From assembly GCA_041645555.1 (NCBI GenBank), contig JBAZPX010000001.1:127479-191478 (forward strand): a DNA stretch of 64,000 bases, in the 5' to 3' direction. This document shows, one piece after another, positions 31,497 to 60,958 of the stretch (the stretch's first letter is position 1; every line of letters starts with the position of its first letter). This stretch comes from Patescibacteria group bacterium. GTDB lineage: Bacteria > Patescibacteriota > Patescibacteriia > Patescibacteriales > JAQTRU01. The position numbers were made by a program, and so were the translations under genes. The notes under the pieces are model-generated. The model saw only the letters and a program-made list of their open reading frames with translations. It was not told the origin of the DNA and did no database searches.

Positions 31497-32540
31497 ATGT
31501 TTAATAAAATTTTGGGAAAATTTAGCAAGGATTTGGGCATTGATTTGGGTACAAAAAACACCCTGGTTTATTCTAGCGATAAAGGCATAGTTATAAATGA
31601 GCCGTCGGTGGTGGCCGTCAACATGCGGACAGACGAGGTTTTGGCCGTCGGCGAAGAGGCGAAAAAGATGGTTGGAAAAACTCCGGCTCATATCCAGGCC
31701 ATCAAGCCTTTGATAGACGGAGTTATTTCTGATTTTGAAGTGACGGAAAAAATGCTGAAATATTTTATTGATAAAGTCCACAGCGAAAGTTTTACGCTGG
31801 CGCCGCGCCCGCGAGTCGTAATCGGCATTCCTCTAGATATTACCGAGGTGGAAAGAAAGGCGGTGGAAGACGCGGCTAAATCCGCCGGCGCCCGCCAGGT
31901 TTTTTTAGTGGAAGAATCTATGGCCGCGGCGATAGGCGCGCGCCTGCCGGTTCTGGAGCCGACCGCCACGATGATAGTTGATATAGGAGGCGGGACAACG
32001 GAAATCGCCGTTATTTCTTTAGCCGGGGTGGTTACCTGGAAGTCTTTAAGGCTCGCCGGCAATGAGCTTGATAATAACATCGTTGAATATATCAGGGAAG
32101 AATTTAATATTTTGGTCGGAGAACAGCTGGCGGAAGAAGTAAAAATAAAAATAGGCTCGGCCACTCCGCTAAAAACTTCCTTAGAGATGGAAGTTCGGGG
32201 GAGAGACTTGATTAACGGTTTGCCGAAAGCGGTAATTATAAATGACAGCCAGGTAAGAGAGGCAATGAGCAGAACTATAAAACAGATTGTGGATAATATA
32301 AAAATCACTCTAGAAACAACTCCGCCGGAATTAGTTTCTGATATTTATGAGCATGGGATATTTTTAACCGGAGGCGGAGCTCTTTTGCGCGGCATTGATA
32401 AAGAGATAGCCCAGCACACCAAAATTCCGGTTCGAGTGGCGGATGATCCCCTGACTTGCGTTGTGAGAGGAACAGGGATTCTTTTGTCCGATCCGGAACT
32501 TTTAGACAAGGTGGCTTTGCCGAGCAGCGAGGAGCTTTAG
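31497..32540 (+). CDS. mreB: rod shape-determining protein MreB
   Basis: Actin-like ATPase motifs DLGIDLGTKNTLVY, VIVDIGGGTTEIAVISL, IFLTGGGALLRGI. Confidence 0.9.
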   Translation: MFNKILGKFSKDLGIDLGTKNTLVYSSDKGIVINEPSVVAVNMRTDEVLAVGEEAKKMVGKTPAHIQAIKPLIDGVISDFEVTEKMLKYFIDKVHSESFTLAPRPRVVIGIPLDITEVERKAVEDAAKSAGARQVFLVEESMAAAIGARLPVLEPTATMIVDIGGGTTEIAVISLAGVVTWKSLRLAGNELDNNIVEYIREEFNILVGEQLAEEVKIKIGSATPLKTSLEMEVRGRDLINGLPKAVIINDSQVREAMSRTIKQIVDNIKITLETTPPELVSDIYEHGIFLTGGGALLRGIDKEIAQHTKIPVRVADDPLTCVVRGTGILLSDPELLDKVALPSSEEL

Positions 32541-33082: not shown

Positions 33083-33925
33083 ATGTTAAAGATAAAAACA
33101 AAAAATAATATTTTTATATTTACGGCAGTTATCGGGCTGCTTATTTTTTTGCATTTTATTAAAGTTCTGTCTCCTCTTGAAAATATAATGGCGCGGGCAA
33201 TAAGCCCAATTGCCGGCCGTCTTTATTCCGCAAGCTCTTCTCTGCGGGTGGCGTTAAGCGAACGGACAGATAAAGAAGAACTGCTGGCTACCACAAAAGA
33301 TCTTCAAGCGGAAATAAACCAGGTGAAGGCGGAAAACGCCAGGCTTAAATCGATTGAAGAGGAAAATAAGAAGTTGCGCCAGTATTTAAAATTTTCCACA
33401 AAAAATGAATTTAATTACATTTTAACCAATGTTATTTCCCGGGGGATATTGGGTGATCCGGTTAGCGGAGGGCAAAGTTTAATTGTTGATAAGGGGGTAG
33501 CAGACGGTTTGGCTCCCGGTTTAGCCGTGGTAAATAGCGAGGGGATTGTCGCCGGCAAGATAGCTGAAGTAAAAGAGAATACGGCAAAGATTTATCTTGC
33601 TACCGACAGTAATTGCAAACTAGCCGCGGCGGTCCAGGGGAGCGAGGGCCAGCCAGGCAGCGCAAACAAAACCGTTGGCATTGCGGAAGGAGAATTGGGC
33701 CTGACCATAAGGATGAATTTTATCCCCCAGGCAGAAGAAATAAAAGTTGGCGATACAGCAGTCACCTCTGGGCTAGAGGAGAATATTCCAGCCGGCTTAG
33801 TTATAGGCAGAATAGTCGAGGTGGACAAAACCAGCAATGAAGTTTGGCAAAGGGCGACTATCGAACCTTTAATTAATTTAGATGAGTTGACAATAGTTTC
33901 GGTTTTGCGGCCGCGGGAAAATTAA
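33083..33925 (+). CDS. mreC: rod shape-determining protein MreC
   Basis: N-terminal TM, coiled coil (LQAEINQVKAENARLKSIEEENKKLRQYL), C-terminal beta-domain with GIVAGKIAEV. Positioned after mreB. Confidence 0.75.
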   Translation: MLKIKTKNNIFIFTAVIGLLIFLHFIKVLSPLENIMARAISPIAGRLYSASSSLRVALSERTDKEELLATTKDLQAEINQVKAENARLKSIEEENKKLRQYLKFSTKNEFNYILTNVISRGILGDPVSGGQSLIVDKGVADGLAPGLAVVNSEGIVAGKIAEVKENTAKIYLATDSNCKLAAAVQGSEGQPGSANKTVGIAEGELGLTIRMNFIPQAEEIKVGDTAVTSGLEENIPAGLVIGRIVEVDKTSNEVWQRATIEPLINLDELTIVSVLRPREN

Positions 33926-37847: not shown

Positions 37848-39560
37848 ATGGATAAATTTTTTCGAGAAAAATTAAGATTAATAGAAGTAAACCAACTTTT
37901 GGTAAAGGGACGCTGGCTTTATGTCAGCGGCGTTGTTTTAATCGGCCTGGCTTCAAAGATTACCAGCAGTTTATCAGAAAAAATTGTTGATGCGCCCAAT
38001 ACTAATTTTCCTCTGTTCTTGATGATTTTCATGGGTTTATGCGCTTATGGCTTAAACATCATATTTTTACTTTATTTGCGGAAACCGGAAAAAATTTCTC
38101 TTGCCGGAATTAAAATTATCAGTTTTTTCAATTTAACTCTTGATTATCTTTTTTATATTTTAATAATTTTTTATGCCGGGGGCCTGACCAGCATCTCTTT
38201 CCTTTATTTTTTCTTTAATATTATCGCTTCGGCTTTTTTCTACTCTTTTGCCGGAGTTTTAGTTATTTCCAGCCTCGCCAGCGTCTTGTATGGCGGTTTA
38301 ATCTTATTGCAGTATTTTGAAATTATTCCTTTCTTCTCCCGCTATAATTTAGCTTATGAATACGCCTTGGCTTTTAATTATTCAGCGGTTATCACCAATC
38401 TGATTGCTATCATCTTGAGCTTTTATATCGTGGGGATGTTTGCCGGGTTAATTGCCCGGGCTCTGCGAAACAGGGAAGAGGAAATTAGAGAAGAAAGAGA
38501 TAAAGAGAGGGCGATTCTGGCTAATTTATCCGACGGCTTAATTTTTATCAACCGGAGAGGAATTATTGAGGCGGTTAATCCTAAAGCGGAAAAATTATTG
38601 GATTTCGGAGCTAAAGAAGTTTTGGGTAAAAAAATAAAAAATATAGACAGAAGCAAAGCTAACTTATTGGAAATTTTTAAGGATAAATATAAGAAAAGAG
38701 GAGAGTTGCAGCCGGCCGGCAGAAGCGAGGAAGTCTTAAGAATTTATACGGTTACGATTATAGACGAAGAAAGTGAATTAATCGGAACCGCGAAAATAAT
38801 TCATGATATTTCTCGGGAAAAATTCGTTGATAGAATGAAGTCAGAATTTATAATGATTGCCGGCCACCAGTTAAGAACCCCGCTTTCCGCCATTAAATGG
38901 GCTTTCGAGTTGCTTTTAAAAGGCGGTTTCGGCAAGATAGAACCGAAGCAGAAGAAAGTTTTGGGACAATGCGTTGATTATAACGAAAAGTTGATAAAAA
39001 TGGTGGATGATTTGCTGGATATTTTTTCCATAGAACAAGGTAAATATTATTATCAGTTCGTAAAGACCGATTTGGGCGGTCTCCTGGAAGAGGCGAGCAA
39101 GCGCTATGAAGAAATGGCGGCAGAAAGAGGCATAAAATTTAATCTCACGATAGAAAAAAATTTGCCGGAGGTTAAAATTGACCCTTACAAAATAAAATTG
39201 GTTTTGGTCAGTTTGATTGAGAATGCCGTTACCTATACGGATAAAGGCGGCGAAGTAAACATTGATTGCCGCATTAAAGACGGAAAAATATTTATGGCCA
39301 TTAAAGATACCGGCATTGGCATATCAAAAGAATCGCAAAGCCAGATTTTTACAAAATTTTTCCGGGGAGCCAACGCTTTAAGTTTTCAGCCGGAAGGCAA
39401 TGGCCTGGGCCTGTTTGTGGCGAAAAATATTGTCGAGTATCATGAAGGTAAAATTTGGTTTACGAGCGAAGTGGACAAGGGCACGACTTTTTATGTAGAA
39501 TTGCCTTTAGACCCGCTTATTAATCCTAAAAAAGGAGAAAAAGATTTAATAAAATCTTAA
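37848..39560 (+). CDS. sensor histidine kinase (polytopic N-terminal membrane domain, PAS, HisKA, HATPase_c)
   Basis: About 6 TM helices. PAS (LANLSDGLIFINRRGII). H-box HQLRTPLSAIKW. N, G1, G2 boxes (DTGIGISKE, GNGLGLFVAKNIV). Confidence 0.85.
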   Translation: MDKFFREKLRLIEVNQLLVKGRWLYVSGVVLIGLASKITSSLSEKIVDAPNTNFPLFLMIFMGLCAYGLNIIFLLYLRKPEKISLAGIKIISFFNLTLDYLFYILIIFYAGGLTSISFLYFFFNIIASAFFYSFAGVLVISSLASVLYGGLILLQYFEIIPFFSRYNLAYEYALAFNYSAVITNLIAIILSFYIVGMFAGLIARALRNREEEIREERDKERAILANLSDGLIFINRRGIIEAVNPKAEKLLDFGAKEVLGKKIKNIDRSKANLLEIFKDKYKKRGELQPAGRSEEVLRIYTVTIIDEESELIGTAKIIHDISREKFVDRMKSEFIMIAGHQLRTPLSAIKWAFELLLKGGFGKIEPKQKKVLGQCVDYNEKLIKMVDDLLDIFSIEQGKYYYQFVKTDLGGLLEEASKRYEEMAAERGIKFNLTIEKNLPEVKIDPYKIKLVLVSLIENAVTYTDKGGEVNIDCRIKDGKIFMAIKDTGIGISKESQSQIFTKFFRGANALSFQPEGNGLGLFVAKNIVEYHEGKIWFTSEVDKGTTFYVELPLDPLINPKKGEKDLIKS

Positions 39561-41768: not shown

Positions 41769-41769
41769 C

Positions 41770-41798
41770 TTGGCAAAATTAAATAGATTGGGTATAAT
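41770..41798 (+). promoter_or_regulatory. sigma70-type promoter (TTGGCA-17-TATAAT) for the small peptide gene
   Basis: ttggca at 41770-41775, 17-nt spacer, ggtataat with tataat at 41793-41798. Confidence 0.6.
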
Positions 41799-41896
41799 AT
41801 AAGAGAGTCTAGCAAATGGCTCGCAGCTTTTTACAAAGAAGCCTGGAAGCACAAGCTTTCCAGGGAACATTCACGTCTTTCCTCAAGGAGGAACAG

Positions 41897-42043
41897 ATGA
41901 ATATGACCCTTCCCGGCGCCCACGGCAATCGCGGGCGTCCAAGTTTCAACGGTTTCAACGCTGTCAACGGTGGAAACGGTGTCAACCGCGGATTCAACCA
42001 GGCGAACTCTCTGAACGTCAAGGGCGTGTACAACAAGGTCTGA
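41897..42043 (+). CDS. small Gly/Asn-rich repeat peptide (48 aa); could alternatively be a small RNA
   Basis: AGGAGG 5 nt upstream of the ATG. The peptide MNMTLPGAHGNRGRPSFNGFNAVNGGNGVNRGFNQANSLNVKGVYNKV is encoded by an imperfect 9-nt repeat (x-N-G)n. GC is ~52%, atypical for this window. Own promoter and terminator. Confidence 0.45.
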   Translation: MNMTLPGAHGNRGRPSFNGFNAVNGGNGVNRGFNQANSLNVKGVYNKV

Positions 42044-42075
42044 TCATCCGAGAAGGGCTCTAAAAGGAGAGCCAA

Positions 42076-42112
42076 AGCGGGAACCATTACGTGGTACCCG
42101 CTTTTAATATTT
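42076..42112 (+). terminator. rho-independent terminator
   Basis: gcgggaacc-attacgt-ggtacccgc followed by ttttaatattt. Confidence 0.65.
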
Positions 42113-42167
42113 AGGCGAATATTAGCTTTAAGTTGTAAAAAAAATTAAATGTTGCTATAATAAAAAT

Positions 42168-42563
42168 ATGGCTAAGAAGATATTTATAATTGAGGACGAT
42201 GCTAATATTTTATCAAGCCTGCAGGCGAAATTCAGCCTGGAGGGGTTTCAAGTCGGGACAAGCAGCGGCAATACGGAGATTAGCGACCTACTTGCGGGGA
42301 TAAAGAAATTTAAGCCTGATTTTATTATTTTAGATTTAATTCTGCCGGCCGTAGACGGCTTTGAGGTGATAAAAGCCATAAAAGCGGACGAAGAAATTTC
42401 TTTTCCGCCTATATTTATTTTTACTAACTTAAGCGACGAGGATAGCCGGAGCCGGAGCACAAACCTGGGAATAAAGCATTATTTTATAAAAAGCGATTTT
42501 AATATTGATGAATTTATTTCTAAATTTAAAAAAATTATTGCTAATATAGAAAAAATAAAGTAA
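42168..42563 (+). CDS. single-domain response regulator (CheY-like receiver, no output domain)
   Basis: IFIIEDD..., phospho-acceptor region FIILDLILPAVDGFEV, conserved K region. Confidence 0.8.
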   Translation: MAKKIFIIEDDANILSSLQAKFSLEGFQVGTSSGNTEISDLLAGIKKFKPDFIILDLILPAVDGFEVIKAIKADEEISFPPIFIFTNLSDEDSRSRSTNLGIKHYFIKSDFNIDEFISKFKKIIANIEKIK

Positions 42564-42576
42564 AATTTTTAGGATT

Positions 42577-44490
42577 ATGAAAATAACGGGGAAAAGGATA
42601 AAAATCATATTAATATTTTTAGCAGTAATTGCGGCTTTGTCCGTATTTTTTATTGTGGGTAAAAAAGACAAGACGGAATATACAACGGCGGCGGTAGCCA
42701 AAGGCAAATTAACCCAGACCGTTAGCGAAGTGGGCACGGTTAAGTCCTCCCAGGAAATTGAATTAGGTTTTTTGCAAAGCGGGAAAATCGGAAAAATATT
42801 AGTTAAAATAGGCGATAAAGTAAGCGAGGGCCAGGTTCTGGCCGAACTGGATTATAACTCGTTTTCCATAAAAGAGCAGGAGGCACAGGCCAATTTAGAC
42901 GTGGCTAACGCTAACTTAAATAAATTACTGGCTGGCGCTACTTCTAGGGAAATCGCCGTTTCCCAGGCCCAGGTTGACCAGGCCAAAGCGACTTATCTAG
43001 CTAACTTGGAAGAGCTGGATAAAATCGAAAAAAATACGGCCGAAGACATTTCCCAGGCGGAAAAAAGTTTGGCTGATTTAGAATCAAACCAGGCGGATGA
43101 TATTACTTCTTATGAACAGGCCATAGCTTTAGCCGAAACTGATTTGGCTAGCGCCAAGAGCACTTATGAGCAGTCGATTAATAATAAAAGGAATGTAGCT
43201 TTAACGACCATTGATAATAAATTAGTGATTGCCAATACCGCTCTGGACAATATAAATACGATTTTAAACGATAACGATATTGAGAGTGTTTTAAGCGTTA
43301 AAAACAAAATTTATTTAACCAATACGGAGAATTCCCATGATGATGGTCTTGATTTACTTACAGCAGCTGACAACAGTTTAGCCGCGGCTAAGCAAACCCA
43401 AACTAACACGGCCGTAATTACGGCCAGCCAGGATTCCCTGGCCACTTTGAATAAAACTTTTGAAGCCCTTGATTATTGTTATAAGGCCTTAGAAAATAGC
43501 GTTGTTTCTTCGGGTTTTACCCAAACTGAATTGGATGCTTACAAAACTTCAATCAGCGCGCAGATTACGGCTATCAGTACGGCGATTTCGGCTGTCCAGA
43601 CGGCCCAGCATAATTTAGAGGACGCAGTTTTAACCTACCAAACGGAAGTGGCGGGAGCTAGTGACGATTTAGCTAAGACAAAAACAGACCTGGCTAATGC
43701 CATAAAGTCAGCTAAGAATTCTTTAGCTTCTGTCCGGCTGGCCGGGGAGCAAAAGATAGCGGTCGCCCAGTCAAAAGTTGATACTAGCCAAGAGGCTTGG
43801 CAGGTGGCAAAAGCCCAATTTGAAAATCTTAAATCACCGGCTCGTGTTCAGGACGTTTCTTTGTATCGGGCCCAGGTTAAGCAGGCCGAAGCCGCTTTGG
43901 CTCTAGCGAAAGAGCAAATTGAAGATAGTATTATAAAGGCGCCGATTGGCGGGACGGTCGTTAGGATTGAATATGAATTGGGGGAGCAGGCAACGGCGGC
44001 CAAACCGGCCATAGCGGTTTTGGGCGAGAATAATTTTGAAATTGAAGTTGATATTTCGGAAGCCGATATTGCCAAGATAAAAAAAGACAACTCGGTCGAA
44101 ATTACTTTGGACGCTTTTGGAGACGGGGTGAAATTTACCGGAAGAGTCTATTCAATAGAGCCGGCGGAGACGGTTATTCAGGATGTAATTTATTACAAAG
44201 TTAAAGTGCAGTTTACGGAGAAAGATAAGGCGAAAATGGCCAGCATAAAATCAGGCATGACCGCTAATGTTGTTATTACCACTAATTCCAGAGATAACGT
44301 TTTAATAATGCCTTCCCGCGCGGTCGTGGAAAAAAACGGCGGGGATAAATACGCAAGAATTTTAGTCGACGAAAAAGTCATTGAGGCGCCGGTCGTAATC
44401 GGTCTGCAGGGAGATGAAGGTATGGTAGAAGTTTTATCCGGAGTTAAGGAAAGCGACCAGGTAATAACTTTTGTGAAAAACGGCAATTAA
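42577..44490 (+). CDS. HlyD-family periplasmic adaptor/membrane fusion protein with an unusually long coiled coil
   Basis: N-terminal TM anchor, lipoyl-like GTVKSSQEIELGFLQSGKIGKILVKIGDKV, a coiled-coil hairpin of roughly 380 aa, C-terminal beta-barrel/MP domains. Followed by ABC ATPase and permease genes. Confidence 0.8.
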   Translation: MKITGKRIKIILIFLAVIAALSVFFIVGKKDKTEYTTAAVAKGKLTQTVSEVGTVKSSQEIELGFLQSGKIGKILVKIGDKVSEGQVLAELDYNSFSIKEQEAQANLDVANANLNKLLAGATSREIAVSQAQVDQAKATYLANLEELDKIEKNTAEDISQAEKSLADLESNQADDITSYEQAIALAETDLASAKSTYEQSINNKRNVALTTIDNKLVIANTALDNINTILNDNDIESVLSVKNKIYLTNTENSHDDGLDLLTAADNSLAAAKQTQTNTAVITASQDSLATLNKTFEALDYCYKALENSVVSSGFTQTELDAYKTSISAQITAISTAISAVQTAQHNLEDAVLTYQTEVAGASDDLAKTKTDLANAIKSAKNSLASVRLAGEQKIAVAQSKVDTSQEAWQVAKAQFENLKSPARVQDVSLYRAQVKQAEAALALAKEQIEDSIIKAPIGGTVVRIEYELGEQATAAKPAIAVLGENNFEIEVDISEADIAKIKKDNSVEITLDAFGDGVKFTGRVYSIEPAETVIQDVIYYKVKVQFTEKDKAKMASIKSGMTANVVITTNSRDNVLIMPSRAVVEKNGGDKYARILVDEKVIEAPVVIGLQGDEGMVEVLSGVKESDQVITFVKNGN

Positions 44491-44673: not shown

Positions 44674-45453
44674 TTACCACTTCCACTTTTTCATCAGAAT
44701 AAATCCTCCGATAGCTCCGCCGTCAACAACCCAGGTGGAGGTTCGGCCGGTGGAAATATACTTATCCGTGAGTTTTCCGTTCTCGAACCCCCAATAAGGC
44801 AAAGTATGCTGATTATAACGGGGGTCGTTGTAAGCAGAAAATCCGCCCTTAACGATTTTCGTGGTGATATTAAAAACCACAAATCTTATCATTCCTCCTT
44901 CGCTAAGGTCCTGGAGTCCAACTTTAAGCGGTATTTTTTCTATGAATACCCGTCGGGCGAAGCTTAGCGTGGCCATAACGGCGCAAAAGTGCTGGCAATT
45001 ATTCCAGACATGCCAATCGTCGTCGCCGGCAAAGTATTTCATATTCCCATGTGAATGGACTTTGGCATCGGCTATGGAATTAAAGAAAGACTGGGCAACC
45101 ATCCAGGCCAGAAAACCGTTATTGCTTTCCGTTGTTATTTTTGTGACGACATTCACCAGCGGTCCGTTCCAGGTTTCCTTGACTTTATTCCAGGTTTCGT
45201 TCTCCAAGATAATTGCCTTGGGGTAAAGATTATATGACAGAGAACAGAAAGAGGGTTGGTTTTCTCCGGCTTCGGTCAGATTGGGAAACGGCCTTAGCGG
45301 AGAGAAATTTGCGAGGGGAATGCTACCTTCGGAAAAATGGATTTCCGCTTCTGTTTCCGGGAGCTCGGGGAGTTTTAGCCCCAGACTCCAGGCGATTGTC
45401 CCGAGTTGAAATAAGGACAGAAATGCGAATGAGAATAAAAGTATCTTTTTCAT
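44674..45453 (-). CDS. secreted hypothetical protein, atypical GC
   Basis: Signal peptide MKKILLFSFAFLSLFQLGTIAWS after a GGAGGAA RBS. GC ~46-48%. No recognisable catalytic motif. Convergent with, and embedded between, hlyD and the ABC genes. A terminator-like hairpin follows on the minus strand at 44623-44660. Confidence 0.5.
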   Translation of the reverse strand: MKKILLFSFAFLSLFQLGTIAWSLGLKLPELPETEAEIHFSEGSIPLANFSPLRPFPNLTEAGENQPSFCSLSYNLYPKAIILENETWNKVKETWNGPLVNVVTKITTESNNGFLAWMVAQSFFNSIADAKVHSHGNMKYFAGDDDWHVWNNCQHFCAVMATLSFARRVFIEKIPLKVGLQDLSEGGMIRFVVFNITTKIVKGGFSAYNDPRYNQHTLPYWGFENGKLTDKYISTGRTSTWVVDGGAIGGFILMKKWKW

Positions 45454-45520
45454 GGCTTTCCTCCAGGGGAAATTGTAAGTTTTAAAGGTCAACAGAATAA
45501 ATTAACATAAATATAAACAA

Positions 45521-46243
45521 ATGTCAACTCCCTTGATTCAAGTAAAAGATTTAAAAAAAGAATATCGGACAGACGAGGTCGTGACTAAAGTCTTGCACGG
45601 CCTTTCTTTTAATATAGCCAAGGGCGAGTTCGTAGCGATTATGGGGCCGTCCGGTTCCGGCAAATCCACTTTAATGCATATCTTGGGGTTGCTTGACCGG
45701 GCGACGAGCGGAACTTATGAGCTGGAAACGGAAAATGTAAATAATTTAAGCGATGATGAGTTAGCCGGTCTGCGCAATAAAAAAATTGGTTTTGTTTTTC
45801 AGGCCTTTAATTTACTGCCGCGCACAACTGTTTTAAATAATGTAAAATTGCCCCTAGTTTATTCGGAGGACAAAAATGATCCAGATAAAAGAGCGAGAGA
45901 GGTTTTGGAAAGTGTGGGCTTAGGGCACCGGTTAAATTATTTTACCAACCAAATCTCCGGCGGAGAAAAGCAGCGGGTAGCGATTGCCCGGGCTTTGGTC
46001 AATAACCCATCGGTAGTTTTTGCCGATGAACCGACCGGAAACCTAGATTCAAAATCCGGCGTTCAGGTAATGGAAATCCTGCAGAAGTTGAACGATGCCG
46101 GCAACACTATAATTTTAGTTACCCACGAAACCTATACGGCCGAGCACGCGGACAGAATTATAAAGATAAGAGACGGTTTGATTTTTGACGATTCTAAAGT
46201 GGCAAACAGAAGGATAGCCAGGGATGGGGAAATACTTAAATAA
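45521..46243 (+). CDS. ABC transporter ATP-binding protein (MacB/LolD/FtsE type)
   Basis: Walker [10 protein letters not shown], signature [15 protein letters not shown], Walker [14 protein letters not shown]-loop. Confidence 0.9.
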
Positions 46244-46377: not shown

Positions 46378-47631
46378 ATGTTTTCTCTAATCAGGCAATG
46401 CATTAAGAATTCTACCGCTTCGCTTCTAGCTAATAAGGTTAGAAGTTTTTTGACGATGCTCGGGATTGTGATCGGAGTCGGAGCGGTTATTATCATAATG
46501 TCGGTCGGGGCCGGAGCCCAAAGCTTGATTTTAGCCCAGGTTAAGAGCCTGGGCACGAATTTAATCGGGGTCCTGCCGGGCCAAGCCGAAGACGAAGGCC
46601 CGCCGGCTTCGGCCATGGGCATTGTTATCACGACCCTCACCTATGAAGATGCCGTGGCTTTGCGGGATAAAAAAAATGCCCCCCACATTGCCGCCGTGGT
46701 AGCTTATTCTAACGGCGTAGGTACGGCCAGCTGGGGCTCCCGCACTTATGATACTAATTTAAGCGGCTGCACTTTTGATATGATGGACGTGGAGGGGGGA
46801 GAAGTGGAAAAGGGTCGCTTTTTTTCCGAGGAGGAAGAAAAAAATTTAGCCAAGGTAGTAGTTTTGGGCAGCACGGTCAAAAATGAACTTTTCGGAGAAT
46901 CGGATGCGACGGGTCAGAGAATTAAAATAAAAAAGCATACTTTTGAAGTAATCGGGGTCATGGCCGAAAGAGGGACAGTGGCTTTTCAGGATTATGACGA
47001 TAAAATATTTTTGCCCATCCGGACGATGCAGAAGCTGATGCTTGGGGTTAACCATATTAATATGATCAGAGCCAAAGTTGACTATGAAGAAAATATTGCC
47101 GAGGCCATGGAAGAAGTAAAAATTACTTTACGGGATAAACATAATATTACTGACCAAAGCGGCACCAATGATGATTTTACGGTCAGAAGCGCGGCGCAAG
47201 CTCTGGATATGATAAAAACCGTTACCGATGCCTTGCGTTACTTTTTGGCGGCGATGGCGGCCCTGTCTTTGCTGGTCGGCGGAATTGGGATTATGAACAT
47301 AATGCTGGTAAGCGTGACGGAAAGGACAAGGGAAATCGGCTTGCGCAAGGCGGTCGGCGCCACTAATTCCAATATTTCAAACCAATTTTTAGTTGAAGCC
47401 GTTTCTATAACCTTAATCGGCGGAATAATCGGCATAGTTGCCGGTACCGTTATTTCGTTTTTAGTTTCTGTCGTAGCTAATTTTTTAGGTTACGATTGGA
47501 AATTTTCTATTTCTTTGATTTCCATTATCCTGGCCGTGGGAGTTTCTTCTTTAGTCGGTTTTGTTTTCGGTTTGTATCCCGCCCGCAAGGCTTCTCACCT
47601 TGAACCGGTGCAGGCGCTGCATTACGAGTAG
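46378..47631 (+). CDS. ABC transporter permease, FtsX/MacB family
   Basis: N-terminal TM, large extracytoplasmic domain, C-terminal 3-TM FtsX domain (LVGGIGIMNIMLVSVTERTREIGLRKAVGA). Confidence 0.85.
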   Translation: MFSLIRQCIKNSTASLLANKVRSFLTMLGIVIGVGAVIIIMSVGAGAQSLILAQVKSLGTNLIGVLPGQAEDEGPPASAMGIVITTLTYEDAVALRDKKNAPHIAAVVAYSNGVGTASWGSRTYDTNLSGCTFDMMDVEGGEVEKGRFFSEEEEKNLAKVVVLGSTVKNELFGESDATGQRIKIKKHTFEVIGVMAERGTVAFQDYDDKIFLPIRTMQKLMLGVNHINMIRAKVDYEENIAEAMEEVKITLRDKHNITDQSGTNDDFTVRSAAQALDMIKTVTDALRYFLAAMAALSLLVGGIGIMNIMLVSVTERTREIGLRKAVGATNSNISNQFLVEAVSITLIGGIIGIVAGTVISFLVSVVANFLGYDWKFSISLISIILAVGVSSLVGFVFGLYPARKASHLEPVQALHYE

Positions 47632-47778: not shown

Positions 47779-49068
47779 ATGAATATAAAGTCTACAATTA
47801 AGATTTCTTGGCAGGCGATGCACGCCAATAAAGTCAGGACCGGCCTGACGGTTTTAGGAATGGTTATCGGCATTGCCAGCGTCATTATTGTTTTTTCCGC
47901 CGGCGAGGGTATAAACAACCTGATTTTAGGCGAAGTGGAATCCTTCGGCGGTTCGGACATGGTAGAGACGGAAATAAAAGTCCCTAGCACGAAAAAGGGC
48001 ACGGCCGGCGAGGCCCAATCCGGAGCGAATTTAGCTACCGGCGTGCAGGTGACGACTTTGACCTTGAAGGATATGGAAGACATCGATAAATTGCCGAATA
48101 TAAAACAAAGTTATGCCGGTATAATGGGGCAGGAACAGGTAAGTTACGGCAATGAATTAAAAAAAGCTTTTTTGTTCGGGGTCAGCCCAAGTTTTATAGA
48201 TATGGATAAGAGCGAAATTGATACGGGGAGATTTTTTACCGAAGCTGAAGATAAATCTTTAACGCCGGTAGCGGTTCTGGGCTCTAAGATGAAAGAGAAA
48301 TTATTTGGCGACTCTGACCCCATCGGCCAGTTTGTTAAAATCCGCCAGAAAAAATTCAGGGTTATCGGAATTCTTAAAGAAAGGGGAGCGGTGATGACTT
48401 TAGATTTTGACGACTTTGTCTATGTGCCGGTAAGGACTTTGCAAAAAAGAGTTATGGGCATAGACCATGTCATTTTTTTAATGCACCAGGTTAATGATAC
48501 TAATTTACTTGATGAAACTACTGAAGAAATGCGCGCTATTTTAAGGGAAAACCACGATATTCCTCCGCCGGAAGAAGCGGTGACGACTATATTCGGTTCA
48601 GGCAAAGACGATTTCCGCGTGACCTCAATGGTGGAATCAATGGACGTTATGAAAACCGTTACCGGCGCCATTACTTTATTACTTTTGGCAATTGTGGCGA
48701 TTTCTTTGGTAGTCGGCGGAGTGGGGATTACCAATATTATGTATGTCATAGTGACCGAGCGGACAAAAGAAATTGGTTTACGCAAAGCGGTCGGCGCGAA
48801 GTACGCGGATATTATGTGGCAATTTTTAACCGAATCAATTTTAATTACCATTGCCGGCGGAGTGGTTGGAATAATTTTAGGCGTGGGCGTTTCCCTCCTG
48901 GTTTCTTTGGGCGCTAGTTATTACGGATGGAATTGGGGATTTAGCGTGCCGCTTAAGGCATTTATTGTTTCATTGGGATTTTCTTTATTCTTTGGCGTGG
49001 CCTTTGGTTTGTACCCGGCTCGCAAAGCGGCGAAATTAGAGCCGGTGGAAGCCTTGGGTCATGAGTAA
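47779..49068 (+). CDS. ABC transporter permease, FtsX/MacB family (paralog)
   Basis: Same architecture as the upstream permease (LVVGGVGITNIMYVIVTERTKEIGLRKAVGA). Confidence 0.85.
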   Translation: MNIKSTIKISWQAMHANKVRTGLTVLGMVIGIASVIIVFSAGEGINNLILGEVESFGGSDMVETEIKVPSTKKGTAGEAQSGANLATGVQVTTLTLKDMEDIDKLPNIKQSYAGIMGQEQVSYGNELKKAFLFGVSPSFIDMDKSEIDTGRFFTEAEDKSLTPVAVLGSKMKEKLFGDSDPIGQFVKIRQKKFRVIGILKERGAVMTLDFDDFVYVPVRTLQKRVMGIDHVIFLMHQVNDTNLLDETTEEMRAILRENHDIPPPEEAVTTIFGSGKDDFRVTSMVESMDVMKTVTGAITLLLLAIVAISLVVGGVGITNIMYVIVTERTKEIGLRKAVGAKYADIMWQFLTESILITIAGGVVGIILGVGVSLLVSLGASYYGWNWGFSVPLKAFIVSLGFSLFFGVAFGLYPARKAAKLEPVEALGHE

Positions 49069-49119
49069 ATAGTACGAAAACACAAAAACACAAAAAAGAT
49101 TAAATATTTTTTAAATTAA

Positions 49120-49355
49120 AACGCCACGGGTTCTTCGCCCGTGGCTTCTTCGTATCCCGCCGTTTCCAGAAATTTTTTTAGTTTTAAAAAGTTTTTATTA
49201 AGTAGCGGCTTCGCCTTTCTTTAAAAAATTTTTCGAAATTTCAATGCGCCGAAACGGCGGGATATACCGATCCGCCCAGCTGCTTGCGAGCAGCTGGGGG
49301 CTTCCGGTATATAAAAAGACGGGCTCGGTGTAAAACACACACGAGCCCGTTTAAC
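49120..49355. other. GC-rich multi-hairpin non-coding region (candidate structured RNA)
   Basis: gccacggg-ttcttcg-cccgtggc. A 13-nt long-range pair atcccgccgtttc / gaaacggcgggat separated by ~80 nt. cccagctgc-ttgcga-gcagctggg nested inside tataccg / cggtata. Terminal acgggctcg-...-cgagcccgt followed by ttt. Confidence 0.4.
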
Positions 49356-49409
49356 ATAAAGATAAGGGATAAAGCTTACGTCTCTCGGTAACTTATTCGC
49401 TCCCAGCGC

Positions 49410-49928
49410 TTATGCGGTGCATTGGAAAATAATTGCCAATACTTCCTCTGGCAAAAACTCGTCAAATTTTTCTTCGAGCCTTTCCAAGTTCACCGGGCGG
49501 ATGAGGAGATATGGCCAACAGAGTTGGTCAACGCTGAGTGCCGTGTGCCAGCTGGAAAAATCGACGTTCGAAAAGATTATTGTCCTTTTTTCGGTCCCGA
49601 CGGTTATTGTCCGGTTGAGTTCATTGAAGCTCACCCGTCCGTTAGTGGACCGTTCGATCAATTCCATTTGGTCTTGGCAGCCGGTAAACGTTCGGGGCAG
49701 AACCAGAACAGGGGACAGGCAGTCCGCTGGCGTAGGTGGAAGAAACTCCGGATAAGATCCCCTGTTGACAAAACTCCACAAGAGATCGAGATATCTTTGT
49801 TTTTCTACTCGGGTCCCAGGATTCTGGAACAATCCAGCCCGAAAACATTTTTCCATCTGGCTTGTTATAAAACCACGCATTTCTACGAACTTGGTTCCTC
49901 CCCCGCGTTGCGCAAGTGTAGGCATCAT
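49410..49928 (-). CDS. hypothetical ORF in a high-GC patch (coding status uncertain)
   Basis: Weak RBS (aaaggcgggaaaaATG). Overlapping + strand ORFs of similar length exist, so this could be non-coding. GC about 50%. Confidence 0.25.
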   Translation of the reverse strand: MMPTLAQRGGGTKFVEMRGFITSQMEKCFRAGLFQNPGTRVEKQRYLDLLWSFVNRGSYPEFLPPTPADCLSPVLVLPRTFTGCQDQMELIERSTNGRVSFNELNRTITVGTEKRTIIFSNVDFSSWHTALSVDQLCWPYLLIRPVNLERLEEKFDEFLPEEVLAIIFQCTA

Positions 49929-50078
49929 TTTTCCCGCCTTTCTTTGTTGGAGTGTCAGTTTCTAGAAATCATTTGATTCTTTTATAATCTATTTTTGTAA
50001 GAGCAATTTTATTTTTTAATAAAGATTAAATCAGGTTAACATATTTTATATTTTTTGTCAATTTTTTAAATAAAAAAG

Positions 50079-50112
50079 GCAAATCATTAATGCGATTTGC
50101 CTTCCTTTTTTT
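50079..50112. terminator. bidirectional rho-independent terminator
   Basis: A6-ggcaaatc-attaatgc-gatttgcc-ttccT7. Confidence 0.7.
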
Positions 50113-50116
50113 CTTC

Positions 50117-50407
50117 TTATTTCGGTATGCGGAACAGAAATCCATCGGCACTTGGTTCTTCTCCCGTAAATATCTTTACCGGCAGGCTAAGAATATCTTT
50201 GCCAAGAGTTCCGTTTTTGCATTCGTGCAATTTTACTTCTCCATCCGAAATGGCCGGATTAGCGATTGCCAAAATTTTCACGAGATGAAATTCTCCCGGA
50301 TTAGCGCCATCTCCGCCCTCGCCCGTAAATACATGGATTGTCCGGCTTGGCTCAATCATCCCGACCGTTATTTCACGGTACCCAGCCAAAAATTTCTCCC
50401 TTGTCAT
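50117..50407 (-). CDS. small conserved-looking hypothetical protein (96 aa)
   Basis: Strong RBS AGGAGGaaacgATG, terminator directly downstream on the minus strand. Sequence MTREKFLAGYREITVGMIEPSRTIHVFTGEGGDGANPGEFHLVKILAI... looks globular. Confidence 0.5.
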   Translation of the reverse strand: MTREKFLAGYREITVGMIEPSRTIHVFTGEGGDGANPGEFHLVKILAIANPAISDGEVKLHECKNGTLGKDILSLPVKIFTGEEPSADGFLFRIPK

Positions 50408-50473
50408 CGTTTCCTCCTTTTTGTAGTTTGGGGAACAGGCTTGTTTTTAACAGTTTACTAAAATATTTTTTTC

Positions 50474-50502
50474 TTGTCAAATAAAGCTAAAGTTGCTATA
50501 AT
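50474..50502 (+). promoter_or_regulatory. sigma70-type promoter TTGTCA-17-TATAAT
   Basis: ttgtca at 50474-50479, 17-nt spacer, tataat at 50497-50502. Upstream of the large membrane-anchored protein gene. Confidence 0.65.
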
Positions 50503-50524
50503 TTATGTATATTTTTGACTGCGA

Positions 50525-52612
50525 ATGCTACCTGTCTCGCCGGCAGGCGGGCAAATTTGGCGTTCGAATTATAAAGTCTTTATGTTTAAACTCTCAAAAT
50601 CAAACAATATAAACTTGGTTGGAATTTACGAAAAAGCCGAGGATTTAATTGCCTCGGTGCCGTTTATTAAAAAACGGAGAAGAAGGAGAAAATTTTTAGA
50701 AATTTTAAAATATTTCTTTTTTTGTTTTATTGGGTTGCTGATTTTCTCTATTATTTTGGGCGCGGGTGTTTTTTTTAATTTCCGGCAGGTTTACAGAAGC
50801 GCGTCTATCGCCCGGGATAATTTAACACAGGCCATTAGTTTAGCCGGGGAAAGGGAATTTGCCGCGGCTCTGGCCGCTTCAAAAAAAGCAGAAGAGGAAT
50901 TTAATTTGGCTTCTCTCCATCTAAAGTCAGTTAATAGCAATTTTTTTGTTTCTCGCCTTCCGTTTCTGCAAAGCCAGATTAATGATTTAAACTATCTGGT
51001 AGAAGGCGGGGAAATTTTGTCTAAATCGGTTTATCAGGCCGCCGCTCTCGGGCAGGAGTTAGATATTTTATTCCTTAAGCGATTCGGTTCAAGTTTCTCT
51101 AAATTCAGCCAGGAAGAAAAAGGAGAGATATTAAAATTAATTTATGAATCAGGCCCGGAACTGGCCGGCCTAAAAGCTAATCTAGATTTGGCCCTTATTA
51201 GTTTAGACCAGATTCGTTTTAAGGGAATATTTGGGCTCCTGGAAAATAAAATAAATAAAATAAAGTTAGAGCTTAAAAACGGCAGCGCTTTGCTGGAAAG
51301 AGCGGTAACGATGACGGAAATTTTACCTTTTTGGGCGGGCTACCCAAACAAAACCAGTTTTCTGGTGCTTTTACAGAATAATGACGAATTAAGGCCGACC
51401 GGCGGATTTTTAGGCACCTACGGTATTCTAGAGATAAAAGATGGGGAAATCGTCCGTTTTGATACCCATGATATCTATCACATGGATATGCCGGTTAAGG
51501 ATAAGATTAATATCGTCCCGCCTGAGCCTTTAAAGAAATATTTAGAAGTGGATAAATGGTTTATGCGGGACGCTAACTGGTCGCCGGACTGGCCGACCGC
51601 CGCTTCTCAAATTGAAGAGTTTTATAAAAAAGAAGATTCGCTGCTGCCGCCGGCAAACCAGATTAATAATTTTTTCGGAGAGTTTTCCGGGATAATCGCC
51701 ATAACGCCGAAATTCGTTACCGACCTTTTAGCTATAACCGGGCCGGTTTTTGTTGGAGGAGAAGAATATAACAAAGATAATTTTCAGGGCTTATTACAGT
51801 ATAAGGTGGAGGCCGGTTATGTCCAATTAGGCATTCCTTCCTGGCAAAGGAAAGAAGTAATCGGAGAATTGGTAAAAGAGCTAAAGATAAAATTATTTGA
51901 TTTGTCTTTTTCTTCGTGGCGCCAGGTTTTAACCGGTTTTGAAGAAAATATTTTAAAAAAAGATATTTTAATATATTTAAAAGATGAGCCGGCGCAAAAG
52001 TTAGTAAAAGATTCTGGCGGAGCCGGAGAGATAAAGGAGGCAAGCGGCGATTATTTAATGGTCGTGGATGCCAATTTAGCCGCTTTAAAAACCGACGCTG
52101 TGATGAGCAGAAACATCAGTTATGAACTTGAGCAAAAGGATGATGGCTTATTTGTTAAGTTAAAAATTAATTACGCCCATAATGGCGGATTTGACTGGCG
52201 GACAACCAGGTATAGAACCTATACGCGGATTTATGTTCCGGAAGGGGCTAAACTAATTAAAGTTAAGGTGGACGGCAAAGATAAAAATATAAGCGAAGTT
52301 GATATTGCCAAGGAGTTTAATAAAACTGTTTTTGGCGTTTTTGTTTCCATTGAGCCGGGCGAGATTGGCAGTTTATATTTTGAGTATAAATTGCCGGTTG
52401 ATTTAGAAAAATTGGTTAAAAACGGAAATTACAGCTTATTTGTCCAGAAACAACCCGGCAACAACGTGGAAAATTTAGCAGTTGACTTAAAGCTTAAAAA
52501 TAAGGTAAAATCATATAATCCGACTGGCTTTTCTGCGGCCAGGATCGGGAGCAATGAGATAAGGTGGAAAAGCGACCTTAATACTGACAAGATATTTGAA
52601 ATAAATTTTTAA
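50525..52612 (+). CDS. large N-terminally membrane-anchored extracytoplasmic protein, hypothetical
   Basis: Single TM helix (FFFCFIGLLIFSIILGAGVFF) after an Arg-rich stretch, then ~600 aa with no recognised catalytic motif. An alternative ATG lies at 50582. Confidence 0.5.
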   Translation: MLPVSPAGGQIWRSNYKVFMFKLSKSNNINLVGIYEKAEDLIASVPFIKKRRRRRKFLEILKYFFFCFIGLLIFSIILGAGVFFNFRQVYRSASIARDNLTQAISLAGEREFAAALAASKKAEEEFNLASLHLKSVNSNFFVSRLPFLQSQINDLNYLVEGGEILSKSVYQAAALGQELDILFLKRFGSSFSKFSQEEKGEILKLIYESGPELAGLKANLDLALISLDQIRFKGIFGLLENKINKIKLELKNGSALLERAVTMTEILPFWAGYPNKTSFLVLLQNNDELRPTGGFLGTYGILEIKDGEIVRFDTHDIYHMDMPVKDKINIVPPEPLKKYLEVDKWFMRDANWSPDWPTAASQIEEFYKKEDSLLPPANQINNFFGEFSGIIAITPKFVTDLLAITGPVFVGGEEYNKDNFQGLLQYKVEAGYVQLGIPSWQRKEVIGELVKELKIKLFDLSFSSWRQVLTGFEENILKKDILIYLKDEPAQKLVKDSGGAGEIKEASGDYLMVVDANLAALKTDAVMSRNISYELEQKDDGLFVKLKINYAHNGGFDWRTTRYRTYTRIYVPEGAKLIKVKVDGKDKNISEVDIAKEFNKTVFGVFVSIEPGEIGSLYFEYKLPVDLEKLVKNGNYSLFVQKQPGNNVENLAVDLKLKNKVKSYNPTGFSAARIGSNEIRWKSDLNTDKIFEINF

Positions 52613-52614
52613 TT

Positions 52615-53622
52615 ATGTTTATAAAACGAATAGGCATTGACCTGGGAACAACTTATACTTTGGTTTATCTGCCTAAGCGCGGTATTGTTATTAATGAACC
52701 TTCGGTGGTGGCAATCTCCATGGAAGACAGAAAAATTTTAGCCGTGGGCAATGAAGCCAAAGATATGCTTGGCCGCACTCCCGATACCATTATTGCCTTA
52801 AAGCCGCTAAAGGACGGGGTAATTGCCGATTATCGCACGACCGAGGCCATGCTTAGGTATTTTATAAATAAGACTTTGGGCGGGATTCATCTTTTTCGGC
52901 CCGAGGTTATGGTGGCGGTGCCGGCCGGAATTTCTTCAACCGAAAGGCGGGCTGTCACCGAAGCGACAATCGCGGCCGGAGCTAAAGCCGCTTATATAAT
53001 AAAAGAGCCGATTGCGGCGGCGATCGGGGCTGATATCCCGATTGGTTCGGCTTCCGGGCATATGATTGTGGATATTGGCGGCGGGACAGCGGAAATGGCC
53101 GTTATCTCTTTGGGCGGGATTGTGGCTTCAACTTCGGTCCGGGTCGGGGGCAATAAATTTGATGAAGCTATCTTGGAATATATCCGGCGGAAATATAATT
53201 TAGCCATTGGCGAAAGAACTTCTGAGGAGGTAAAAATAAATATTGGCTCCGCTCTATTTCTTGAGGATAAATTAACAATGGAAATACGCGGCCGGGATAT
53301 TATTACCGGCCTGCCGCGCGCCATTAATGTTACCAGTGACGATGTCACTGAAGCCATTCAGAATGAATTAGAAGCTATTATTTCTGCGGCCAAAAGAGTT
53401 TTGCATAATACTCCGCCGGAATTGGCAGCTGATATTATGGATAAGGGCATGGTAATGGCTGGAGGCAGTTCACTCCTGCGAAATATTGACCAACTGCTGT
53501 CCCGCACTACCGGTGTCCCGGTTTACGTGGCGGACGAACCGCTTCTCTGCGTCGCTAAAGGGACGGGGATAGCGCTGGATAACTTAGATAGCTATAAACG
53601 CAGTATTCTCGCAACGAAGTAA
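52615..53622 (+). CDS. MreB/Mbl-like actin homolog (second paralog)
   Basis: IGIDLGTTYTLVY, MIVDIGGGTAEMAVISL, MVMAGGSSLLRNI. Confidence 0.85.
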   Translation: MFIKRIGIDLGTTYTLVYLPKRGIVINEPSVVAISMEDRKILAVGNEAKDMLGRTPDTIIALKPLKDGVIADYRTTEAMLRYFINKTLGGIHLFRPEVMVAVPAGISSTERRAVTEATIAAGAKAAYIIKEPIAAAIGADIPIGSASGHMIVDIGGGTAEMAVISLGGIVASTSVRVGGNKFDEAILEYIRRKYNLAIGERTSEEVKINIGSALFLEDKLTMEIRGRDIITGLPRAINVTSDDVTEAIQNELEAIISAAKRVLHNTPPELAADIMDKGMVMAGGSSLLRNIDQLLSRTTGVPVYVADEPLLCVAKGTGIALDNLDSYKRSILATK

Positions 53623-60955: not shown

Positions 60956-60958
60956 GTT

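Follow-up and report, generated by a model that had tools for sequence, protein, structure and literature searches.

At positions 41770-42105 of the window, the whole 64,000-nucleotide stretch of Patescibacteria DNA analysed here, lies a complete expression unit that is restricted to one narrow clade of the Patescibacteria (candidate phyla radiation, CPR). It comprises a promoter, a structured 92-nt leader, a Shine-Dalgarno (SD) sequence, an ORF, a 9-nt repeat and a terminator. The best explanation, which we hold with somewhat more confidence than doubt, is that it is an autonomous, monocistronic, lineage-restricted gene whose product is a disordered small protein of the cytoplasm, with translation gated by a hairpin over the SD sequence. 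The preliminary description had proposed a TTGGCA-17-TATAAT promoter, a ribosome-binding site, a 48-aa ORF and a terminator; all are present, and the translation matches the quoted peptide exactly. Its reading as a monocistronic unit encoding a repetitive Asn/Gly peptide gains strength from two diverged homologues, designated L004 and L031. The unit and its surroundings contain the following features.

37848-39560: PAS histidine kinase (Pfam)
41770-41798, plus strand: sigma-70-type promoter of the unit, TTGGCA (-35), 17-nt spacer, TATAAT (-10)
41805-41896, plus strand: structured 5' leader of ~92 nt, with hairpins at ~41805-41822, 41826-41842 and 41843-41863
41874-41899, plus strand: SD-sequestering hairpin, core UUUCCUC-AAG-GAGGAAA, SD GGAGG at 41887-41891
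41897-42043, plus strand: small ORF, 48 aa and stop, MNMTLPGAHGNRGRPSFNGFNAVNGGNGVNRGFNQANSLNVKGVYNKV, with in-frame homologues in L004 and L031
41915-41939, plus strand: GC-rich hairpin within the ORF, GGCGCCC..GGGCGTC, codons 7-15, the best-conserved coding stretch
41946-41986, plus strand: imperfect 9-nt tandem repeat (TRF: 4.6 copies, consensus TCAACGGTG, 78% matches)
42056-42105, plus strand: two 3' hairpins, GGCTCT-AAAAGG-AGAGCC (42056-42073) and then an intrinsic terminator
42133-42161, plus strand: separate promoter of the receiver/pump operon, TTGTAA-17-TATAAT with TG extension, the right boundary of the unit
42168-42563, plus strand: stand-alone receiver protein, 131 aa (Pfam Response_reg, 3.3e-15)
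42577-44490: HlyD-type adaptor, 637 aa (Pfam; TIGR01730, 130.6 bits against a cut-off of 94.9; YknX-type domains)
44674-45492, minus strand: 272-aa ORF of unannotated family, between adaptor and ATPase
45521-46243: ABC ATPase, 240 aa (Pfam: ABC_tran only, a bare NBD)
46378-47631 and 47779-49068: two MacB_PCD+FtsX permeases (Pfam; 4-TM)

The unit is well delimited on both sides. Its promoter matches 11 of the 12 consensus positions and has the top score in a 2-kb scan, and both hexamers are kept in L004 and L031. These homologous units were located by synteny, their adaptors being 86% (L004) and 84% (L031) identical to that of the window, and all comparative tests therefore concern three closely related sequences only. 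We infer a transcription start at ~41805. At the 3' end, the intrinsic terminator (42074-42104) is a 13-bp hairpin, AAAGCGGGAACCA-TTACG-TGGTACCCGCTTT, followed by a T-run; a simple terminator scan did not flag it. Both 3' hairpins persist in L004 and L031 with compensatory substitutions, and the unit as a whole folds better than shuffled sequences (z -4.1). The near-consensus promoter would thus yield a transcript of ~300 nt, which the two 3' hairpins would end before the independent promoter of the receiver/pump operon. Because identical copies occur on at least three contigs from different samples, the unit is not an assembly artefact. A promoter duplication and AATATTTAG direct repeats were considered as candidate insertion scars; their shortness and AT-richness preclude interpretation.

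The most constrained part of the leader surrounds the SD sequence. AAGGAGGAA occupies 41885-41893, and the ATG at 41897 begins 5 nt past GGAGG. All three units share a 17-nt block, TTTCCT[C/T]AAGGAGGAA, the rest of their leaders being 57-66% identical, and the sole change within it, C-G to U-G, preserves pairing. The resulting hairpins have energies of -8.2, -7.0 and -7.7 kcal/mol, and in the window the AUG is also paired. Further upstream, the third leader hairpin (alignment columns 61-83) is kept with compensatory changes, and the fold z-scores of the whole leaders are -3.3 in the window, -1.5 in L004 and -3.8 in L031. The SD hairpin probably gates translation, with temperature, an RNA-binding factor or a helicase as conceivable triggers: the leader would fold into hairpins of which the last masks the SD sequence, and its opening would allow synthesis of a hydrophilic, intrinsically disordered 48-aa peptide rich in Asn, Gly and Arg. 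An SD-sequestering leader is also the sole resemblance to type I toxin mRNAs. A type I toxin-antitoxin system was considered and rejected, the peptide being hydrophilic and no minus-strand promoter-like site lying within 41800-42110.

The frame of the small ORF is already open from an ATG at 41816, and the NCBI annotation accordingly gives a 75-aa product. That start is conserved in neither L004 nor L031, and the public annotation is corrected to the supported 48 aa. An overlapping 92-aa ORF on the minus strand (41809-42087), likewise not conserved as an ORF in either relative, is stop-free because of the C-ending sense codons. Segments of the small-ORF product suited to mass spectrometry are PSFNGFNAVNGGNGVNR and GFNQANSLNVK.

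The homologous ORFs encode 47 aa (L004, 3287-3430) and 44 aa (L031, 993-1127). Both loci keep the promoter, SD, in-frame ATG, open frame, same-column stop and terminator, and the position of the ATG across units shifts only by 3-nt steps. In a codon-blind MAFFT alignment all four indels are of 3 or 6 nt, which could partly reflect slippage of the 9-nt repeat rather than selection on the frame. The chance that a frame stays stop-free after shuffling is 0.10-0.20 per sequence. Taken over these three sequences only, the open frame, start, stop, SD and frame-preserving indels have the character of a coding region, which speaks for a translated small gene rather than an sRNA. The encoded sequence itself is poorly retained. 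Amino-acid identity is 52% and 40%, nucleotide divergence of the ORF reaches 40-60% in an AT-biased genome, and divergence at all three codon positions equals or exceeds that of the flanking gene's third positions. Substitutions by codon position (17/20/20, 19/26/23 and 27/28/26) are not enriched at the third position, and in a BLOSUM frame test on the three sequences frame 0 gave z 2.3 and the stop-containing frame 2 gave z 2.8; these results do not demonstrate purifying selection at the amino-acid level.

What persists through this divergence is composition. Asn makes up 23-27% and Gly 13-19% of the three peptides, compared with 4.9% and 7.8% in the genome. The number of Asn codons (11, 12 and 12) is held even where L031 swaps AAC for AAT and loses CAAC. 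All AAC triplets lie in frame 0 (9, 10 and 8 of them), with none in frames 1 and 2; AAC supplies 27 of the 35 Asn codons in the three ORFs, as against 25% genome-wide, and their Arg codons are exclusively CGN. The ORF has 56% GC compared with 40% for the window, but 120-nt stretches that are GC-rich are frequent inside the window's genes, so ORF GC alone is not unusual. The unusual traits are GC3 (0.73, 0.81 and 0.57 in the three ORFs, against 0.28-0.52 in other genes) and codon choice. Other genes of the window show no sign of translational selection, and the non-native codon usage leaves room for a foreign origin or for a constraint at the RNA level.

Two local elements lie within the coding region. 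The imperfect 9-nt repeat, as first described and now confirmed by TRF, encodes (F/V/G)-N-G/A triplets. A different 9-nt repeat, ACAACAGCA, occurs in 2.8 copies at the homologous place in L004, and L031 has no repeat; the repeat is therefore a lineage-specific expansion. The peptide sequence turns over rapidly, by substitutions and by slippage of short repeats within the frame. In the GC-rich hairpin, none of the three units shows a change in the CGCCC/GGGCG arms, and variation at the inner pairs is partly compensated (columns 137-161), which hints at an RNA-level role of some kind. The ORF segments as a whole show no structure in excess of shuffled sequences (z 0.06, 0.04 and -0.7).

The peptide has the properties of a disordered, hydrophilic product. 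AlphaFold2, run on the three-sequence alignment, returned a low-confidence coil with no secondary structure (pLDDT 51). GRAVY is -0.64 for the window peptide and -1.09 and -1.12 for the other two, and net charge differs among the three (+5, -1, +5). The reported absence of a signal peptide holds: in all three peptides the maximum 15-residue Kyte-Doolittle mean is below zero, leaving no stretch of that length with positive mean hydropathy and no hydrophobic segment. A double-glycine leader was sought by inspection against the consensus (ending in GG/GA/GS, hydrophobic at -4, -7, -12 and -15, acidic at -8); a mid-peptide N-[GS]-G is conserved, and the residues upstream of it are off consensus (Pro/Arg at -12/-15, Gly at -8). 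Since the peptide has no export signal, action in the cytoplasm is most likely. Searches of the three peptides against Pfam and NCBIfam at E<=10 gave no match, including to Bacteriocin_IIc and ComC. At the RNA level, Rfam 15 gave no match in the whole window at gathering thresholds; at E<=10 the local region gave weak matches only, at 42061-42250 (terminator and AT-rich spacer) and far below gathering scores, among them antisense_SR1 at E=9, outside the unit. ARAGORN found no tRNA or tmRNA.

Judged by composition only, the peptide may have a cytoplasmic role. It would be a low-complexity protein defined by its composition, resembling hydrophilins or RG-motif proteins and acting as a stress protectant or as a binder of nucleic acids or ribosomes. 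Hydrophilins are defined by more than 6% Gly and a high hydrophilicity index, and related small proteins include stress-induced Gly-rich proteins such as the E. coli YciG/KGG-repeat proteins and ribosome-associated proteins of the RMF type. In this comparison, which is one of composition only, the product of the unit is similarly small, Gly-rich (13-19%), hydrophilic (GRAVY -0.64 to -1.12) and unstructured, with no export signal and an RNA-masked start. It differs in its dominant residue (Asn in place of Lys, Glu or Gln), in its unconserved charge and in matching no family at E<=10; the window peptide (GRAVY -0.64) is also less hydrophilic than classic hydrophilins. Taxonomically restricted (orphan) bacterial small proteins of fewer than 50 aa, with low complexity and disorder, are a second point of reference. 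The unit shares with them a 44-48 aa ORF served by a promoter, SD and terminator of its own, the lack of homologues beyond a narrow clade, predicted disorder and variable presence among close relatives, and departs from them in its strong conserved expression signals, the SD hairpin, ~25% Asn and off-host codon usage.

The family is very small. The homologue search that the preliminary description had called for did recover two relatives, and it also confined the family to three close relatives: single-sequence and profile searches, covering 5.8 billion protein clusters and 1.84 billion representative proteins, returned only the three peptides, and the family thus has three members among about 15 billion proteins. 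Two additional HMMER matches, P0124 and P0125, are giant repeat proteins matching an 'NTGNVTL' motif and are spurious. A search of genome and metagenome contigs with the in-ORF hairpin pattern GGCGCCCNCGNCAATCGCGGGCG found the L004 contig and otherwise chance matches in DNA of 52-71% GC; a less GC-rich search pattern might have worked better. Viral contigs (searched with peptide and DNA patterns), phage records and plasmid records held no match to the unit, and there is thus no evidence for a mobile-element origin. In a fourth relative, L030, the unit is absent by clean loss, and the adaptor identity matrix nests this locus in the unit-bearing clade. Three relatives carry the gene and a fourth of the same clade lacks it, which marks it as dispensable.

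Downstream of the unit, Pfam confirmed the receiver, HlyD adaptor, ABC ATPase and two FtsX permeases named in the preliminary description, together with the upstream kinase. The adaptor had been called exceptionally long, but 637 aa is ordinary: more than 100 orthologues span 600-665 aa, among more than 500 homologues. NCBIfam and PDB sequence searches with the 272-aa minus-strand ORF and an upstream 234-aa protein gave nothing informative. The neighbouring pump is a MacB-type system. Its closest counterparts, which resemble the module and not the peptide, are the MacAB-like pumps of bacteria without an outer membrane, YknWXYZ of B. subtilis and Spr0693-0695 of S. pneumoniae; these share a HlyD/MacA-type adaptor, a separate ABC ATPase and 4-TM MacB_PCD+FtsX permeases, and pumps of this kind give protection from antimicrobial peptides as well as peptide toxins. 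The module here departs from them in its pair of permease genes, in its adaptor (637 aa, with a long coiled-coil insert), in the stand-alone receiver gene that precedes it and in the opposite-strand 272-aa ORF that it encloses; the small ORF beside it lacks the Sec signal of SDP and STII.

The module does not depend on the unit. The TGCTATAAT element of the receiver/pump promoter is kept in 5/5 aligned loci, including two without the unit, and the receiver gene stays beside the adaptor in loci of both kinds; the receiver is a neighbour, with no functional link to the unit shown. At least six related loci (L030, L006, L007/L008, L032, L033 and L034) carry the pump module and lack the unit. The unit, which adjoins the module in all three unit-bearing loci, is never seen away from it. 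Since the pump occurs without the unit and the unit is seen nowhere else, the linkage is one-sided synteny, and the check proposed earlier, for co-occurrence of the peptide gene with HlyD/ABC genes, comes out negative.

These observations bear on the proposal that the unit encodes a leaderless, unmodified bacteriocin-like or signalling peptide that the HlyD/ABC/FtsX module exports or confers immunity to, possibly under control of the kinase and receiver. We regard this as very doubtful. Similar pumps do shield producers from their own peptide toxins, as with YknWXYZ against SDP and in the AS-48 cluster (PMC4887032; PMC5985334), and fast turnover with presence/absence variation is typical of antagonism genes. 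Against this, adjacency in 3/3 loci is plain synteny of close relatives, and the module is kept with its own promoter in six loci that lack the unit. MacB-type pumps take their substrates from outside the membrane and offer them no path across it, and the peptides that they are known to transport, STII and SDP, depend on Sec (PMC5985334), whereas the peptide here has neither a signal peptide nor a double-glycine leader context. The resemblance to class II and leaderless bacteriocins is limited to a small, ribosomally made, Gly-containing peptide encoded near an ABC system. There is no GG-leader, no immunity gene and no cationic, amphipathic or hydrophobic core, the charge flips between +5 and -1, no bacteriocin family is matched at E<=10, and Pfam found no Peptidase_C39 domain in the pump cluster, the ATPase being a bare NBD. 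The same module invites a reading of the ORF as an Asn/Gly-rich leader peptide through which ribosomes would attenuate read-through into the receiver/pump operon. A short ORF with hairpins and a terminator within 13 nt, a same-strand operon downstream, and conservation of composition rather than sequence, as in amino-acid-sensing leader peptides, would fit such a role. We consider it highly improbable: whether or not a locus carries the unit, the operon is served by an extended -10 promoter of its own, relatives that lack the unit still regulate this operon, the consensus fold has no conserved antiterminator, and the sole long-range pairing (41907-41916 with 42048-42057) is lost in L031. Moreover, 44-48 codons are long for a leader peptide, and nothing connects Asn supply with a MacB-type pump.

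A different question is whether the peptide is the functional product at all. The structured sRNA put forward earlier as an alternative, in which the ~300-nt RNA would act in trans or have a dual function and the ORF would be incidental or secondary, is not favoured, and we judge it distinctly unlikely. The fold of the unit (z -4.1), the compensatory changes in leader and 3' hairpins, the GC-rich hairpin as the best-conserved coding stretch, substitutions without a codon-position signature, and a GC content and C-ending bias foreign to the genome's coding style all speak for it. Dual-function sRNAs such as SR1/SR1P of B. subtilis likewise combine a structured, independently transcribed and terminated RNA with a small ORF. 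The unit differs from them in having no Rfam match above noise, no identified target-pairing region and an ORF segment that is not specially structured (z from 0.06 to -0.7). The SD, in-frame ATG, open frame and same-column stop are also conserved, with AAC confined to frame 0, and retention of the Asn codons in L031 despite the change from AAC to AAT and the loss of CAAC fits a constraint on the protein and not on an RNA motif. Rather unlikely, too, is that the unit is a transient proto-gene or a remnant of acquired DNA, transcribed and perhaps translated with no selected function. Divergence of the ORF at every codon position, at least as great as at flanking third positions, clean loss in L030, a family of three, foreign-like codon usage and low complexity from repeat slippage would be expected of such a sequence. 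The hexamers, SD block, frame, stop, Asn/Gly content, high GC3 and terminator hairpins nevertheless survive 40-60% divergence of the ORF, a persistence that is hard to account for unless expression and composition are under selection. Finally, the unit could exemplify a CPR-specific class of translationally gated, Asn/Gly/Arg-rich peptides with non-native C-ending codons, in which composition is selected and sequence is free, serving either as episymbiotic effectors released by an unrecognised leaderless route or as dual-function RNA/peptide regulators; we see this as a long shot.

We therefore return to the autonomous gene for a gated, disordered cytoplasmic protein as the preferred reading. 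The finding opens no long-standing question, and it warns against reading a peptide with a dedicated exporter into adjacency to MacB-type pumps, which are ubiquitous in Patescibacteria. One unexplained point possibly worth attention is the non-native codon usage, which has been kept through heavy divergence. If the preferred reading is true, the gene would add one more lineage-specific small protein to a poorly understood, uncultivated phylum, and, with empty sites in sister genomes, it would provide a well-bounded case of the birth, turnover by repeat slippage and loss of a small low-complexity gene.

The window comes from a metagenome-assembled genome of the Patescibacteria (candidate phyla radiation, CPR). 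A preliminary description had reported a complete expression unit encoding a small peptide, and we confirmed that every listed element is present:

41770-41798, plus strand: promoter TTGGCA-17-TATAAT, matching 11 of 12 consensus positions
41885-41893, plus strand: Shine-Dalgarno (SD) sequence AAGGAGGAA
41897 (ATG) to 42041-42043 (TGA), plus strand: 48-codon ORF
41946-41986, plus strand: 9-nt tandem repeat TCAACGGTG, 4.6 copies
42056-42105, plus strand: two 3' hairpins, of which the second (42074-42105) is a terminator of 13 bp with a T-run

At least three contigs from separate samples carry the unit in identical form, and an assembly artefact was therefore excluded. The NCBI entry for the ORF is a 75-aa 'hypothetical protein WC619_00775' starting at ATG 41816 (window 41816-42043). 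This ATG lacks an SD and is not kept in the two homologous units described below (L004, L031), and we rejected it because the conserved SD and ATG point to the 48-aa product from 41897.

As the peptide had no homologue in a single-sequence search, orthologous loci were fetched via the adaptor protein of the neighboring pump module, which offers a graded orthologue series. Homologous units were found at the same place, between a 234-aa gene and the receiver gene, in two relatives' loci: L004 (adaptor 86% identical to the window's; ORF of 47 aa, 3287-3430) and L031 (adaptor 84% identical; ORF of 44 aa, 993-1127). The ORF has diverged more than the promoter, leader or flanking gene, with only 40–60% nucleotide identity among the three units. 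Both promoter hexamers and, with compensatory changes, both 3' hairpins are retained in all three. The units also share a 17-nt block, TTTCCT[C/T]AAGGAGGAA, followed 5–9 nt downstream by the ATG, which shifts in multiples of three only; the frame is unbroken and the stop codons share one alignment column. Individual loci carry further insertions or duplications: in L031, a 16-nt tandem duplication in the unit's 5' leader (900-930) and a ~52-nt insertion between the receiver -10 box and start codon (1262-1313); in L004, a perfect 22-nt palindrome, GGGGCAATTCGCGAATTGCCCC, after the unit's terminator (~3525-3546), absent from the window and L031.

We favor a translated 48-aa gene over the structured sRNA offered earlier as an alternative, based on the conserved frame, start, stop and SD in three sequences together with the composition and folding of the ORF. 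All AAC triplets of the ORF, 9, 10 and 8 in the three units, fall in frame 0, with none in either alternative frame. Asn accounts for 23–27% of peptide residues compared to 4.9% in the genome, and this content is maintained even in L031, which uses AAT for one third of its Asn and has largely lost the CAAC motif. The ORF segment folds no more than shuffled sequences (z 0.06, 0.04 and -0.7), Rfam gave no match for the unit, and ARAGORN found neither a tRNA nor a tmRNA. The indels favor translation too: aligning the three units without regard to codons gives four, each 3 or 6 nt long. As a caveat, third-position substitutions showed no excess in this three-unit comparison. A BLOSUM frame test did not discriminate the frames with three sequences. 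Constraint appears to act on translation and composition, not on amino-acid sequence. An opposite-strand ORF was rejected, since neither L004 nor L031 conserves it.

The L004 and L031 peptides are 52% and 40% identical to that of the window, and all three share an N-R/N-G-R core, N-G-(F/N) and N-[GS]-G. They contain no Cys and no hydrophobic stretch (maximum 15-residue hydropathy <0), with GRAVY of -0.64 to -1.12 and net charges of +5, -1 and +5; AlphaFold2 predicted no secondary structure (pLDDT 51). The search for homologues yielded the two found by synteny but none beyond: Pfam and NCBIfam returned nothing at E<=10, and neither a profile search against 5.8 billion clusters nor exhaustive HMMER screening of 1.84 billion representative proteins recovered more than the three known peptides, apart from two further HMMER matches rejected as spurious repeat similarity. 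The 9-nt repeat is lineage-specific, since at the corresponding position L004 has another 9-nt repeat and L031 has none, indicating that the low-complexity core turns over by slippage.

The ORF is also an extreme outlier in codon usage, with GC3 of 0.73, 0.81 and 0.57 (window, L004, L031) compared to 0.28–0.52 in 49 other window ORFs. AAC makes up 27 of 35 Asn codons across the three units versus 25% genome-wide (p about 1e-10); in the small ORF all six Phe codons are TTC and Arg codons are exclusively CGN. The bias is maintained in three heavily diverged units despite an AT-biased genome. Slippage of GC-rich repeats regenerating the composition, very high expression, and foreign origin of the ORF are all possible explanations. 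MreB, pilin-like and other window genes lack such bias, so translational selection is not demonstrable within the window; phage, plasmid and viral collections gave no match.

Other genes of the window encode two paralogues of MreB as well as MreC (31497-32540, 52615-53622, 33083-33925). A platform protein of the type II secretion/type IV pilus kind (59256-60455) precedes three pilin-like ORFs (60497-62046) that bear GFSLxE/GFTLLE motifs at their N termini. The window's most GC-rich stretch (72%; 26154-26377) is due to the C-terminal Gly-rich tail, GGGRGGGGGFGGGGFGGFGGGSSGGGGSSGSW, of a 293-aa membrane protein (25455-26336). A ~1.4-kb region (49068-50525) contains only candidate ORFs without family matches, of 172 aa (49410-49928, minus strand) and 123 aa (50090-50461, plus strand).

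Upstream of the ORF, the 92-nt leader folds with z of -3.3 (window), -1.5 (L004) and -3.8 (L031), significant in two of three units. The SD is buried in the last hairpin of the leader, UUUCCUC-AAG-GAGGAAA (-7 to -8 kcal/mol), which is invariant save one C-G to U-G change; from this we infer that translation may be gated by the hairpin.

Pfam confirmed the reported neighbors, namely a stand-alone receiver, a HlyD/MacA-type adaptor, an ABC ATPase, two MacB_PCD+FtsX permeases, and a PAS histidine kinase ending 2.2 kb upstream of the unit. The adaptor, described as exceptionally long, has at 637 aa a normal length for its family. The proposed link to a dedicated exporter or bacteriocin system was not supported. 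An extended -10 promoter (42133-42161) belongs to the pump module itself and is kept whether or not a locus carries the unit, and six related pump loci (L030, L006, L007/L008, L032, L033, L034) lack the unit, absences confirmed with an nhmmer profile. Mechanism likewise speaks against export. MacB-type transporters lack a transmembrane path for substrates, acting instead on those that have already crossed the cytoplasmic membrane (PMC5985334); STII and SDP, the peptides they handle, depend on Sec (PMC5985334; YknWXYZ, PMC4887032), whereas the window peptide lacks an export signal. Pfam detected no C39 peptidase domain in the ABC ATPase.

In L030 (adaptor 84% identical to the window's), the whole 363-nt unit is cleanly absent (L030 735-875 versus window 41769-42132), leaving a 40-nt spacer with only the receiver promoter, directly 3' of the upstream gene's stop codon; presence of the unit is therefore polymorphic within the clade. 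The L030 adaptor is 85% identical to that of L031, compared to only 80% between L004 and L031, which nests L030 among unit-bearing loci; the unit is therefore dispensable, having undergone either loss or repeated gain. In the more distant L006 and L007, a second ABC (447–449 aa) and FtsX pair lies directly upstream of the receiver and adaptor genes, together with a giant fn3/purple-acid-phosphatase-like protein, so the upstream neighborhood is not conserved. In the gap that separates the adaptor gene from the ABC ATPase gene, the window has a 272-aa ORF without family match (44674-45492, minus strand), with counterparts of 275 aa in L004 and L005 and 253 aa in L007 and L008; the site is empty in L029, L032 and L033 and holds two small plus-strand ORFs in L034, which suggests a position of variable content within the pump cluster.

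The earlier interpretation thus stands for a real peptide gene but not for its tie to the exporter. Our best reading, held with moderate confidence, is an accessory gene, autonomous and restricted to one lineage, that encodes a small, disordered cytoplasmic protein rich in Asn, Gly and Arg; its translation would be gated by the SD hairpin. The foremost rival, itself unlikely, is a proto-gene without function, to be set beside both the apparent dispensability of the unit and its unbroken frame. Next comes an sRNA or dual-function RNA, for which the structured leader and the shuffle-like folding of the ORF point in opposite directions, then an exported peptide, improbable for a product lying beside a pump module but lacking an export signal. 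An attenuator leader, set against a module with its own promoter, is the most improbable of these. Orphan small ORFs are a kind already known, to which this unit adds one member.
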